The translations under genes were made by a program, and so were the position numbers. Of a DNA stretch of 64,000 bases, positions 33,379 to 38,956 are shown piece after piece. The stretch spans positions 26,765-90,764 of the forward strand of contig CANQFD010000002.1 in NCBI GenBank assembly GCA_947598325.1, read 5' to 3'. The first letter of the stretch is position 1. Each line of letters starts with the position of its first letter. The notes beneath the pieces are model-generated. The model was not told the origin of the DNA, ran no database searches, and saw only the letters and a program-made list of their open reading frames with translations. Origin of the DNA: an uncultured Bacilli bacterium (GTDB lineage Bacteria > Bacillota_I > Bacilli_A > RF39 > UBA660).

Positions 33379-33411
33379 GTTATCTAAATTTAGAAAGTGA
33401 GAGTGATATAT

Positions 33412-33687
33412 ATGTTAACAATAGAAACTAAAGAATTAGAAATAAGTGATGAACTAAAAAGAAAGGTTGAAATGATATGTAAGTTTGCTTGTGCTAAACC
33501 TACTATCACAAATGGAAATATCAAAAGCATTAAAGAAACAAATATTGCTTATGTAATGCCACATATTATTAAAATTAATAATATTGATTATTTAATGTTT
33601 GACGAATGTGATGACATATTTGTTAATGGTTATGATGAAAAAATAAAGTTTAAAGACTTTGAAAACTACATTAAAAGCCATTTTTAA
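33412..33687 (+). CDS. Hypothetical small protein (91 aa from the ATG at 33412). Membership in the element is uncertain
   Basis: ORF MLTIETKELEISDELKRKVEMICKF... with no recognisable motif. The track start (GTG at 33397) is less likely. Confidence 0.45.
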   Translation: MLTIETKELEISDELKRKVEMICKFACAKPTITNGNIKSIKETNIAYVMPHIIKINNIDYLMFDECDDIFVNGYDEKIKFKDFENYIKSHF

Positions 33688-33696
33688 GCCAATGGT

Positions 33697-33724
33697 TTGA
33701 CATTTCTTAAAAAAGTGATAGAAT
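33697..33724 (+). promoter_or_regulatory. Near-consensus extended -10 promoter upstream of the recombinase leader
   Basis: TTGACA (33697-33702), a 16-nt spacer, then TGaTAGAAT (-10 at 33719-33724). Confidence 0.65.
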
Positions 33725-33770
33725 ATTCAAACAGGAAAACTTATGTCTATTTAAGGGGGGTTAAATAGTT

Positions 33771-33830
33771 ATGAGATTCAAGTTTAAAAGTAATTTATAT
33801 TCAAGATTAAATTTTAAGAGGTGTCAATAG
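33771..33830 (+). CDS. Candidate 19-codon leader peptide (MRFKFKSNLYSRLNFKRCQ)
   Basis: The ATG at 33771 lies 10 nt after AAGGGGGG. The stop TAG (33828-33830) lies inside the 5' arm of the downstream hairpin. Confidence 0.3.
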   Translation: MRFKFKSNLYSRLNFKRCQ

Positions 33831-33861
33831 TATTAACTAGTACTTTTGACGCCTCTTTTTT
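33816..33861 (+). terminator. Terminator-like 42-bp dyad immediately upstream of the recombinase RBS (alternative reading: att-type site)
   Basis: AAGAGGTGTCAATAGTATTAA|CTAGTACTTTTGACGCCTCTT. 17 of 21 positions are symmetric, and TTTTTT follows. The recombinase RBS AAAGGAG is at 33866-33872. Confidence 0.5.
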
Positions 33862-33882
33862 AGTAAAAGGAGTTGATAATTT

Positions 33883-35754: not shown

Positions 35755-36982
35755 AGTAGAGCCAATAAATAAACTATCAGATCTAGCCCAAATTGGCTCT
35801 CATAATAAAAGAGAAAAGAAAGCATATAAGTCTAATCCTGATATTGATATTACAAAAACTAAAAATAATATAGATATTGTTCCTTTATCAGAAAAATATA
35901 TTAAAGGTTTTTATAATCTAACTAAAGAATATAAAAAAGAACACGATAAAAGAATGGAAACAATGAGAGATGATAGAAAGAAAACTTTTAAACAAATGTT
36001 AGATGATTCTAATAATGTTGTTGCTGATGAACTCTTATTTACTTCTGATAATGATTTCTTTAAAGGTATGAGTAAAAAAGAAATAAGAAAATGGGCTGAT
36101 ACTTGTATGGAATTTGTTTATAATGATTTAGGTTATACTAAAGAGCAAATATTACACGCTACTATTCATATGGATGAAAAAACACCACACTTACATTGTG
36201 TAGTTGTACCTTTAATTAGGAAATTTGATAAAAGAACTAATACCGAAAAATGGACTATATCTAAAAAACAATATATTAGAGATAAAAATCATTTATCAGA
36301 ACTTCAAGACAAATATTATGAAAGACTAATTAATAATGGTTTTAAACTTGAAAGAGGTATTAAAAATAGTGATAACGAGCATATATCAGTTAAAGAGTTT
36401 AAAAAGATTACTAAAAAATTAGATAATAGATTAGAAAAGCAAAATTATCTTATGACAAGAGATTATGAAGAACTAGAAGAAAAATTAAAAACTTCTAAAC
36501 CTACTATAACAGGGAAAGAAGTTAAAATTGATAAAGATACTTATGATATACTTAATCGTTTTATGAGTACATCAAAACAAGTTATAAAAGAAATACCTAA
36601 AAATCAAGCATTATTTAATGAACTTAATGACTATACACATAATTATAGACAACTTGAAAAAGAAAAACATAATGTAGAAATAGAAGTTAGAAAGTTAGAA
36701 ATTAAAAATGAAGAATTAGAAAAAGAAAATAAAAGACTTTATGATTTTATCATAAACATATTTCAAACCTTAAAAAAATTCTTTCATAGATTACTGAAAA
36801 TAGGTACCGAAAAAGATAAAGATGAAGTTATTACTGAAATAAAAGAATACCATAAACAAGAAATATATGATAACGAAGATTTACACGATATTGCTGACAA
36901 TACTTCCAAAGAAAATGAAATAAACGACTATCTTTATTCCAAAAATTATAATTATGACAATGATAAAGATATAGATATATAA
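35735..36982 (+). CDS. Plasmid recombination/mobilization relaxase, Pre/Mob (MOBV) family
   Basis: N-terminal [27 protein letters not shown] and the metal motif [19 protein letters not shown] (HxDE...PHxH). Coiled-coil C-terminus. Overlaps the recombinase stop by 20 nt. Confidence 0.85.
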
Positions 36983-36983
36983 A

Positions 36984-37013
36984 AAGCCGAGCAAATTTCA
37001 AATGCTCGGCTTT
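36984..37013 (+). terminator. Terminator hairpin after the relaxase gene
   Basis: AAGCCGAGCA-N9-TGCTCGGCTT followed by a short T-run, 2 nt after the stop. Confidence 0.6.
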
Positions 37014-37040
37014 AATAAAACCATTTTTCCGAAATGGTAA

Positions 37041-37075
37041 CACACTACGCTATTGGCAGAGCCAATAACGGTGTG
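37041..37075 (+). promoter_or_regulatory. Candidate oriT hairpin for the MOBV relaxase
   Basis: CACAC-TACGC-TATTGGC-AGA-GCCAATA-ACG-GTGTG, followed by CAAAGGG. It is locally GC-rich in an AT-rich context. The GTGTG at the 3' arm resembles the pMV158-type nick region. Confidence 0.35.
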
Positions 37076-37147
37076 CAAAGGGAATATTCCCTTTTGAAAC
37101 CTTTTTATTTATTTTCAAGATTTTGCAATGAAAATATACTTACTTTG

Positions 37148-38698
37148 TTACATTTTCATAGATGTTTTTTGTTCTTGTGAAATTTCACCATTATATCTAA
37201 TACTATCTAATTCAGCATTTTTTGGCCTATGTTGTTGTATAAATGATTCCATATCTTTTAAATTTGTTCTTAACATATCTGCAACTTCTATTGGAATATA
37301 ATCTTTAAAATTATCAAATAATGTTTTAAATTCTTGATATGAAATTAATCTCTCATCATAACTTTTTGCTAATGTTGCTTTTTGATTCCATTTATTCATA
37401 ATTTCATTTAAACCATAGTTAATAAATTCCCTATATTTATCTGTTTGTAATTTTGGTATTGCTTGTAAAACACCAAAATATTGATTAGAATCTATCAATG
37501 ACATAACATCATCATTTGAATTTCCTATTGCTGTTTCATTATTAGGTGTTGGATTTGGATTAGAATTTTTATTTTTTGTATTAGACATAGACAATGTTAT
37601 AATTTTATCAATTAAAATAGAATATTCAACTTCTAAATTTTTATTTGTATCATAATCATAAGTTCCTAAAACTTGTTCTATGGATGCTTTACCTTGCATT
37701 AAATCTTTTAAATTTGATGAACTTATTATTTTTTTATGTAATTCTTCAATATTAATTGAAGGCATAGAATAATTGCTATAATTAACTTGTGCTTGGTGAC
37801 CATATTGTTTTTCAACTTCATTTGTTAAATTACTTACAGACATCAAACTAGGTATTTCTTGATGAATAACATTATTACATATTACATTTAATTCTTGCGT
37901 ATCAGAAAATTTACTAATTAAATCTTGAGTATATTTTCCTGCTGATAACTTTTCTATAAATTCACCTAATTGTAAAATTGCTTTTTTTAATTCTTCTTTT
38001 TCAAATAAAATTCTACTTGATGAAACATTATAACTTCCAGAATTAAGATATGATAATCTTCTTTGCAGCTCATTATATTGTTTTTTACTTGTTGCAATTA
38101 AAGTGTTTATTGCTTGATTTGGATTAATAGAAGTATTTTTTTTACTTTCTTGATTTTGTTGATCTTCCTTTACATTTTGATTTTTTTGTAATTGCTGCAT
38201 TTCTTCCATTAGTTGTGGAGTTAATTTTACTAATGAATCTACTATATTTTTGTTATATGATAAAATCATATTTATAATATTTTCTTTTTTACTCATTAAA
38301 TGTTGATAAAATTGTTCTCTTGTTATTCCAGTTTGAAATTTACTTGAAATTTGTGTTGCTAAATTCATAAAATCATCATCTAATGATATAGATTTGGGCT
38401 CATTTTTTCTTAATCTTTCTGTTAAAGAGTTAGAAATACTATCATAATCAACCATATTTTTTTCGGATTTTTGTTGTCTTATTTTTGACAATTCTTCATT
38501 TATCGTATTTTGTAATTGACTTAAAAAGTTTCTCTCTACCAAGTTTAAATCAAAGTGTTCTATGCACTCCTTAATAAATTCATTTAATTTTTCGTTCTCA
38601 CTATTTATTCCAATTGATTTATAAACTTGTTCTCTAATTTCTTTTTCTAAATTTTCATAATTATCTAAAACAATACCAAACATTTCTAATGCTTTCAT
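37148..38698 (-). CDS. Hypothetical 516-aa alpha-helical protein (element cargo, unknown function)
   Basis: Long clean ORF. Start set at the ATG at 38698 (MKALEMFGIV...), 8 nt after GAGAGGAAAG. Q/N/E/K-rich helical sequence with no catalytic or nucleotide-binding motif I can recognise. Confidence 0.7.
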   Translation of the reverse strand: MKALEMFGIVLDNYENLEKEIREQVYKSIGINSENEKLNEFIKECIEHFDLNLVERNFLSQLQNTINEELSKIRQQKSEKNMVDYDSISNSLTERLRKNEPKSISLDDDFMNLATQISSKFQTGITREQFYQHLMSKKENIINMILSYNKNIVDSLVKLTPQLMEEMQQLQKNQNVKEDQQNQESKKNTSINPNQAINTLIATSKKQYNELQRRLSYLNSGSYNVSSSRILFEKEELKKAILQLGEFIEKLSAGKYTQDLISKFSDTQELNVICNNVIHQEIPSLMSVSNLTNEVEKQYGHQAQVNYSNYSMPSINIEELHKKIISSSNLKDLMQGKASIEQVLGTYDYDTNKNLEVEYSILIDKIITLSMSNTKNKNSNPNPTPNNETAIGNSNDDVMSLIDSNQYFGVLQAIPKLQTDKYREFINYGLNEIMNKWNQKATLAKSYDERLISYQEFKTLFDNFKDYIPIEVADMLRTNLKDMESFIQQHRPKNAELDSIRYNGEISQEQKTSMKM

Positions 38699-38956
38699 AA
38701 TATCTTTCCTCTCATAAAATATAATTAGTAATAAATACATTTCTTTAGTCAATTATAACATATTTTTTAATAATTTTTATAATTTTGTTGTAAAATAGGC
38801 AAAAAAATTTGTTTCAAAATGTAAAATATGTAGTATAATCATATTAGTTAGTAGTTATTACTACTTGATTATTGGTATGAGAAAAGTTATTCAACTTCTT
38901 CTCTATACGCTCCATTGACGAATCTGTTCGAACTTTTCGAACATTTAAATATATTT

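Follow-up and report, generated by a model that had tools for sequence, protein, structure and literature searches.

The window analyzed here is a 64,000-nucleotide stretch of contig CANQFD010000002.1 from an uncultured Bacilli bacterium. At positions 33310 to 38914 it most probably contains (we put the probability at about 0.85) a 5,605-bp integrative mobilizable element (IME) that was placed directly after the CCA of a tRNA-Gly gene by a large serine recombinase (LSR). The anatomy and ends of the element, its intact catalytic motifs and the mobility of its close relatives are demonstrated. A sequence-only reading had already proposed an IME at this locus, bounded at 33379 and 38956, and comparison with relatives corrected these ends to 33310 and 38914. 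Besides the exact ends, that reading had missed a conserved small gene, orf96, and the insertion at the CCA terminus that is common to the whole family.

The host genome bin (0.94 Mb, 24% GC) represents an uncultured gut bacterium, and the runs holding it are rabbit gut metagenomes; relatives are filed under uncultured Bacilli or Tenericutes. Relatives were compared at 67 loci, 43 of them from metagenomes and 24 from species-representative genomes, with recombinases that were 54 to 99% identical. Public runs were represented by short assembled contigs, in which rare forms drop out.

Ends of the element and choice of insertion site

Wherever the left side of a locus was intact, the left end, consisting of N4-GATAGGAAACTCGAAC... 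and two hairpins, began at the base after NCCA. On the right, 31 distinct copies terminated in a conserved arm of ∼115 bp, beyond which the flanks were unrelated. Across copies, this terminus read ...AAAGTTATTC(A/G)ACTTCTTC-TCTATACGCTCCA or -TTCACAGGCACCA, and in the window copy the arm ended at 38914 in ...CTATACGCTCCA. Because the left end follows the CCA and the conserved arm ends at 38914, the element extends from 33310 to 38914, with GCTCCA on both sides. The 3' end of the tRNA-Gly gene (T-arm, acceptor strand, U73 and CCA) makes up the left half of the attachment site. A search for direct and inverted repeats across the region returned only AT-rich chance matches and did not locate the ends. 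No duplicated tRNA 3' end of at least 8 nt was found downstream in any locus, which rules out an att repeat in the style of tyrosine integrases; the junctions shared only 5 to 6 nt at both ends, with no repeat of 8 nt or more. The features of the locus, in which an Rfam scan matched only the two tRNA genes, are as follows.

33160-33233: tRNA-Cys gene (ARAGORN; Rfam 61.6 bits)
33235-33309, + strand: tRNA-Gly(GCC) gene, the target, left intact (ARAGORN; Rfam 60.5 bits)
33304-33309, + strand: left GCTCCA copy (C71?-C72-U73-CCA), with the identical hexamer at 38909-38914
33310-33396, + strand: left arm (P'), ATAT-GATAGGAAACTCGAAC, with a hairpin (33323-33344) and a terminator hairpin (33356-33378); kept behind 12 tRNAs and tmRNA genes
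33412-33687, + strand: orf96/orf91, 91 amino acids (aa), alpha+beta
33697-33861, + strand: recombinase leader with promoter, mini-ORF (open reading frame) and terminator
33883-35754, + strand: large serine recombinase, 623 aa
35735-36982, + strand: MobV (Pre/Mob) relaxase, 415 aa
36983-37096, + strand: mob terminator (36983-37013), hairpin (37020-37038) and candidate origin of transfer (oriT; inverted repeat 37041-37075, palindrome 37076-37096)
37148-38698, - strand: cargo gene, 516 aa
38800-38914, + strand: right arm (P), ∼115 bp, with a promoter-like site (38809-38839), a hairpin (38845-38864) and a 14-bp interrupted hairpin (38879-38903)
38915-38980, + strand: presumed native downstream flank of the tRNA, displaced (B'), with TTGACGAATCTGTTCGAAC, a hairpin (38926-38942) and a terminator (38956-38980)

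The sequence after 38914 is best read as the native tRNA flank that was pushed to the far end of the element. In the same genome, the tRNA-Arg(TCT), tRNA-Thr(CGT) and tRNA-Leu(TAG) genes, which are unoccupied, also have a motif of the TTGACGAATCTGTTCGAAC type behind their CCA. In gut metagenome runs, the segment 38906-38947, which holds the CCA plus TTGACGAATCTGTTCGAAC, reached a summed contig depth of 570 to 760 and was joined to many tRNA-like 3' ends; this abundant motif may be native and terminator-like, or it may be a scar that such elements left long ago.

The rule of insertion became apparent from 52 distinct left junctions, all of which came after an NCCA, be it that of a tRNA gene, a tmRNA gene or a pseudo-end. 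Twelve isoacceptors were targeted (Leu-TAG, Leu-CAA, Leu-GAG, Thr-CGT, Thr-GGT, Gly-GCC, Gly-TCC, Arg-CCT, Arg-CCG, Cys, Lys-CTT and Phe), together with at least eight different tmRNA genes. Some elements instead followed the right arm of another element, which likewise ends in CCA, giving rise to tandem arrays (loci L024, L026, L034, L040, L046 and L068). It is hardly credible that such placement resulted from homologous recombination between post-tRNA motifs (GATAGGAAACTCGAAC or TTGACGAATCTGTTCGAAC) instead of the LSR. Motifs of this kind do follow many unoccupied tRNA genes here and are the ones found at 570-760x in gut metagenomes, but the junctions are base-exact at the CCA behind unrelated tRNAs, and the right flanks of ∼9 of 31 sites lack the motif. 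Moreover, the identity of 5 to 6 nt across sites is too short for a RecA-type exchange, and an intact LSR is the element's sole recombinase and is present in every full-length copy.

Since identity across sites is limited to C-N-CCA, strand exchange by the LSR would take place there or within ∼2 nt. The TCGAAC at +15 to +20 of the left arm mirrors the T-loop GTTCGA of the tRNA, which lies at -24 to -19, and by manual count the two boxes are symmetric about the C74/C75 step; many native flanks have TCGAAC at +14 to +19. The N73 base was identical at the left and right junctions in all 24 complete elements. Five of these 24 pairs were T/T, found behind Gly, Cys or T-type pseudo-ends and representing few independent events. 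This concordance fits both a core dinucleotide that includes N73 and a lineage preference. A crossover at the GA of GATAGG was also considered and rejected, as it gave the wrong attL/attR spacing for type-A (TTGACG) flanks.

Movement and exchange of cargo among relatives

Three loci carried a 5,446-bp element that was 100.000% identical, twice behind tRNA-Arg-CCG (L031 and L033) and once behind tRNA-Leu-TAG (L032), with divergence setting in exactly at CACCA on both sides. A second element was 99% identical behind tRNA-Leu(TAG), tRNA-Arg(CCT) and tRNA-Leu(CAA) (L029, L030 and L034). Identical copies behind different tRNAs showed past movement of these relatives. The lineage of the window copy itself was also found in another rabbit-gut species (L066), in a copy that was 97.5% identical over 33233-37136, had a shorter and unrelated cargo, and shared the right arm at 85%. 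In three runs (X5, X9 and X10), the backbone 33305-37136 was found at a depth of 30 to 50 and 98 to 99% identity, while host flanks and cargo were near zero (37206-38790 for the latter). Contigs of runs X9 and X11 matched 38875-38914 at 100% and then continued into different flanks.

From the same data, one could argue that only a 3.7-kb backbone (33310 to ∼37100) is mobile and that cargo and right arm are host DNA or remains of an older element. The depth gap over 37206-38790 and the restriction of high identity in L066 to 33233-37136 would agree with this, and so would the contigs of ERZ27249416, which were 100% identical to the window and broken at 33357 and 37030. We consider this very unlikely, however, because the right arm at 38800-38914 is the family-wide terminus, which L066 has as well, and because the 100% identity of L031, L032 and L033 spans the cargo up to the right-arm CCA. 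The two breaks fall into the second hairpin of the leader and the oriT region, segments that are common to many family members and that split assembly graphs; they were likely caused by several related copies in the sample. The whole pattern fits an exchange of cargo within one element.

At the syntenic dinB-cotJB-cotJC-tRNA-Cys-tRNA-Gly locus of a genus mate (G005), no insertion was present, and in another genome (G003) the contig stopped exactly at the end of tRNA-Gly. The sequence-only reading had suggested that an alignment of related genomes should yield an empty site and exact ends. Such an alignment fixed the ends and provided the empty site in the genus mate, though none in the species itself. 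G010, whose HD protein is 76% identical, was rejected as an empty-site comparator, since its locus is not syntenic. If the element excises, the circle is predicted to carry the junction of CTATACGCTCCA to ATATGATAGG (longer form, ...CTTCTTCTCTATACGCTCCA joined to ATATGATAGGAAACTCGAAC...), and the empty or repaired site that of CACTTGCTCCA to TTGACGAATCTG (longer form, ...CCTCACTTGCTCCA joined to TTGACGAATCTGTTCGAAC...). Upstream of the tRNA pair, at 31675-32722, cotJB and cotJC (Mn-catalase-like) adjoin a DinB-type polymerase gene in this 0.94-Mb, 24% GC Bacilli genome; counted from TTG, the cotJB ORF has a considerable length of 152 aa, with the CotJB domain confined to residues 76-150.

Shortened and decayed forms of the family were encountered in several places. 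In contigs of runs X1, X2, X5 and X9, one of them 2.8 kb long, the leader (33349-33380, to ∼33378) was joined directly to sequence like 36976-37013, the mob terminator, thereby skipping orf96, recombinase and mob. These contigs look like derivatives that have lost the genes but retained the ends and oriT, and that could be mobile in trans; such a mini derivative was seen in run contigs only and neither among the compared loci nor in the genome. A genus mate (L016, G008:C20, 6612-12400) had homologues of orf96 (71%) and of the recombinase (63%) immediately behind tRNA-Met/tRNA-Leu(TAG), with membrane proteins and lipoproteins as cargo and without a relaxase; it represents a family variant lacking the mobilization module. 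Within the host genome itself (G000), fossil junctions of related elements were located at C6:28590 (downstream, - strand), C4:70031-70345, C1:103517, C2:218191, C6:30722 and C8:34816. Behind tRNA-Glu(TTC), the fossil consisted of a left arm, in which the two hairpins were kept, and a truncated start of orf96, whereas a ∼310-bp remnant behind tRNA-Ala comprised the left arm and a right-arm-like end; further fossils were junctions of a pseudo-NCCA plus GATA..AAACTCG. Much of the post-tRNA DNA in this small genome looks to be derived from this element family.

Gene content and proposed mode of transfer

In the 5.6 kb of the element, no more than four ORFs reach a length of 90 aa, and none of them was type IV secretion system (T4SS)-like. 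As the sequence-only reading had stated, scanning of these ORFs identified no replication, coupling-protein or T4SS gene within the element, and the element indeed adjoins the tRNA-Cys/tRNA-Gly pair directly on its 3' side. The two central enzymes were likewise confirmed to be intact, with genes overlapping by exactly 20 nt (35735-35754). The 623-aa ORF matched the Pfam families Resolvase (PF00239, 9e-34), Recombinase (PF07508, 7e-18) and Zn_ribbon_recom (PF13408, 7e-5); the last match, at 23.6 bits, is just below the cut-off of 25.3, and a CxxC...CxxC is visible in the sequence. It also matched the PHROG 95 integrase (4e-108), and its YKRVSTLDQ (the motif of the catalytic Ser15) and KLDRLTRS aligned to the catalytic domain of the TP901-1 integrase. 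The ∼200 C-terminal residues matched no domain, and Pfam gave no DUF4368. A search of a plasmid collection returned no close relative of the recombinase (at most 33% identity, partial) and only generic MobV relatives of the relaxase.

The recombinase gene is preceded by a leader whose promoter, TTGACA-16-TGaTAGAAT at 33697-33724, was the top match in the region (11/12 plus TG). It is followed by a mini-ORF of 19 codons (33771-33830, MRFKFKSNLYSRLNFKRCQ), the stop codon of which lies inside a terminator (33816-33861). A mini-ORF was found at the equivalent place in 23 of 28 relatives checked, with diverging peptide sequences. Mini-ORF and terminator probably limit the synthesis of the recombinase.

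Further upstream, orf96 has its true ATG at 33412, and its 91-aa product precedes the recombinase in every copy with an intact left end. The AF2 model of the protein (pLDDT 93.8) had no fold match in PDB or BFVD (E≤1e-3), and the sequence had no match in Pfam, PHROGs, NCBIfam or PADLOC; the family comprises 884 representative clusters at E≤1e-3. The most likely role of orf96 is that of a protein assisting the recombinase, either as an accessory factor or as a directionality factor.

The 415-aa ORF was identified as a MobV relaxase by Pfam (Mob_Pre, 9e-31) and NCBIfam (NF041497, 121.5 bits; cut-off 100). Its HxDE...PHxH motif aligned to the metal site of MobM (4lvi), and it was 46 to 51% identical to MobV proteins of small Bacillus, Priestia and Clostridium plasmids. 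Downstream of mob, the succession of terminator, hairpin, inverted repeat (37041-37075, ending in GTGTG) and palindrome was kept in 18 of 24 relatives. An inverted repeat with such an end is presumably what a pMV158-type MOBV nick region looks like, and by this analogy 37041-37096 is a candidate oriT.

Between oriT and the right arm lies the cargo slot, the content of which varied among copies; the cargo gene of the window was absent from other copies of the backbone. Its start is most likely 38698 (516 aa, with a good ribosome-binding site), and not 38752. As the sequence-only reading had stated, there is a single cargo gene without a family match in Pfam, PHROGs, NCBIfam or PADLOC, and Foldseek gave no match at E≤1e-3 either. 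The protein is all-helical (AF2 pLDDT 80.7) and has 22 unnamed homologues, some of which occur in non-IME contexts. One homologue, 46% identical (L112, 7001-8581), was situated amid many small unknown genes together with genes for SSB and a SpaA adhesin. The block resembles part of a conjugative element, a context that may point to a cargo family moving along with transfer-related DNA.

Without transfer genes of its own, the element had been expected to depend on a helper, and a candidate was found elsewhere in the same genome. A conjugation-type cluster is located on the same contig (G000 C2:165453-188063, where the window is C2:26765-90764), ∼110 kb away. Its coupling protein matched PF02534 (201 bits), TraG-D_C and TrwB, and its VirB4-like ATPase matched AAA_10 and P-loop_TraG. 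The cluster also encodes a membrane protein of 877 aa, large surface adhesins of the SpaA/TED kind and a 1,037-aa protein that, judged by eye, is a putative cell-wall hydrolase.

The right arm folded into two hairpins in its consensus, the second of which has 14 pairs and ends 6 nt before the terminal A; in the window copy it lies at 38879-38903 and extends to ∼38908. At three pairs of this hairpin, both partners differ between T-type and A-type lineages; 98.3% of cells are paired, and the covariation score was 0.188 versus 0.120 in shuffles (0/500) and at most 0.081 when slid. As these changes split along one lineage boundary, the covariation provides moderate evidence for a conserved fold. 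Hairpin plus N-CCA recalls the acceptor/T-arm minihelix of a tRNA. An interpretation of the arm as a tRNA was rejected, since the Rfam covariance model sees none, and any mimicry is limited to the hairpin plus NCCA. The conserved promoter-like site at 38809-38839 faces outward and may serve either as the source of a small RNA or as the driver of genes across the circle junction.

Taken together, we propose that the LSR joins the circular element, in which the right arm ending in ...NCCA would stand beside the left arm GATAGGAAACTCGAAC, to the 3' end of a tRNA-type gene. Strand exchange within C72-N73-CCA would leave the tRNA intact, let the element start at the first base after CCA, and move the native flank to the far end. 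The recombinase seems to read the GTTCGA box of the T-loop at a fixed distance from N-CCA, a box that has its mirror image, TCGAAC, in the left arm and also in many native flanks. Recognition of features common to all tRNA-type genes would explain why relatives are found behind 12 isoacceptors and tmRNA genes. Since the right arm ends as a pseudo-acceptor end, each insertion would recreate the target, and tandem arrays would build up. After excision, MobV would, judging from its family membership, nick the oriT hairpin downstream of mob, and the single strand would exit via a helper T4SS such as the cluster at C2:165-188 kb.

With somewhat less than even odds, a broader proposal can be made, namely that a large clade of serine recombinases reads a class of genes, recognizing in any tRNA or tmRNA gene the DNA for T-loop, acceptor end and CCA, and exchanges strands inside C72-N73-CCA. 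T-arm elements would then be restricted to U73 tRNAs (Gly and Cys) and A-arm elements to A73. The right arm would be an acceptor mimic, half of attP and maybe a small tRNA-like RNA, and orf96 would set direction or target choice.

Several observations weigh against our interpretation of the locus. The B' flanks were not conserved at ∼9 of 31 sites, so that the mirrored TCGAAC is no absolute requirement and the downstream half is a weak determinant. The crossover is bounded and not fixed, as the dyad geometry points to C74-C75, while the N73 concordance points to a dinucleotide including N73. One locus (L073) combined a T-type arm body with an A at N73 and had the same right flank as L066; its left end was off the contig. 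Exact-protein look-ups with the HD, CotJC, recombinase and Mob proteins revealed no empty site within the species. All five same-species contigs carried the element in place, and contigs otherwise broke inside it. No excised circle of the window copy was detected in the short assembled contigs of public runs; a joint of 33303 to 38909 in run X5 is supported by 24 nt of tRNA-Gly sequence of a generic kind and is not assignable to this species. The GC content of the element (22 to 27%, versus 21 to 31% in the host) was not distinctive. Finally, the T4SS cluster of this genome is a putative helper, which may be incomplete or may not accept the MobV relaxase.

Some of these points would also be expected if the window copy were a fixed IME relic that no longer moves and whose genes are drifting or have been adopted by the host. 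The sequence-only reading had named as signs against a mobile element either a constant location in all close relatives with host-like composition and no circular junction reads, or degenerate enzymes. The former was only half borne out: the site is the same in all five same-species contigs and composition is host-like, and several decayed relatives are present behind other tRNAs of this genome. On the other hand, the congeneric G005 locus is empty, near-identical relatives reside at other tRNAs, and the enzymes look intact: none of the three backbone genes is truncated, catalytic motifs are in place, and both arms match the family consensus. Together with the 97.5% identical backbone in another species and backbone levels several-fold above those of the host flanks in other samples, this makes a relic unlikely, and the copy in the window may be an active IME.

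Comparison with known systems

The element shares its general mode of operation with Tn4451/Tn4453 of Clostridium perfringens and Clostridioides difficile. Both are ∼6 kb, lack transfer genes and need a helper, and have a cargo slot; both have a Mob/Pre relaxase with its own (here candidate) oriT and one LSR, which handles excision and integration via a circle in Tn4451/Tn4453 and would do so here. The corresponding Tn4451/Tn4453 proteins are TnpX for the large serine recombinase and TnpZ for the Mob/Pre relaxase. In contrast to Tn4451, which has low specificity and GA-centered sites resembling its joined ends, this family inserts exactly at the CCA end. The recombinases are distant relatives, the N-terminal domain of TnpX (2mhc) matching only weakly (E 3e-7 over 88 residues), and DUF4368 is absent here. 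The present family further differs in gene order and in having orf96, a leader attenuator and a right arm that resembles a tRNA end. We filed the element as an IME that works like Tn4451, yet stands outside the Tn4451/Tn4453 family. The latter, the best-studied serine-recombinase IME, exchanges 2 bp with low target specificity (PMC5704250).

In general, serine-recombinase IMEs have been described to integrate within genes, which they disrupt, or with low specificity, and tRNA 3' ends are assigned to tyrosine integrases (PMC5704250). Streptococcal/Firmicute IMEs of this type resemble the present family in having a single serine recombinase plus relaxase and/or oriT (PMC5704250, PMC5357655), as well as very short end repeats and frequent tandem accretion with decayed relatives (Guedon et al. 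2017, Coluzzi et al. 2017). Unlike those, however, this family spares the tRNA and uses many tRNA genes.

Islands and prophages that tyrosine integrases insert into tRNA or tmRNA genes likewise target the 3' end, preserve the gene and form tandem arrays at one tRNA. Enzyme class and chemistry are different. Whereas tyrosine-integrase elements duplicate ∼15 to 50 nt of one specific tRNA, here only 5 to 6 nt (C-N-CCA) are shared and near relatives use many tRNAs. With pMV158-type MOBV plasmids (MobM), the element has in common the HxDE...PHxH and an N-terminal HN(K/E)R-type motif, but it is integrated, has no rep gene, and carries its candidate oriT downstream of mob.

The new part is the target rule, as insertion at the CCA of tRNA and tmRNA genes was not found described for this enzyme class in the open-access literature searched. 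In their preprint, a large survey of serine recombinases, Durrant et al. linked DUF4368 to a multi-targeting clade and never mentioned tRNA. Full-text searches of the open-access literature for serine recombinases targeting tRNA or tmRNA yielded nothing relevant. The family seems to be a main gene shuttle of small-genome uncultured gut Bacilli in humans, rabbits, goats and ruminants, and the element defines two protein families without assigned function (orf96 and cargo) in a clear genetic context. Serine integrases are one-way, cofactor-free tools that are thought to have one long, idiosyncratic target, usually within a gene. Compared with these, a clade that lands harmlessly at the CCA of almost any tRNA or tmRNA would, if true, represent a new combination of precision and wide site choice, and would provide a natural set of attB variants for studying how serine integrases read DNA.

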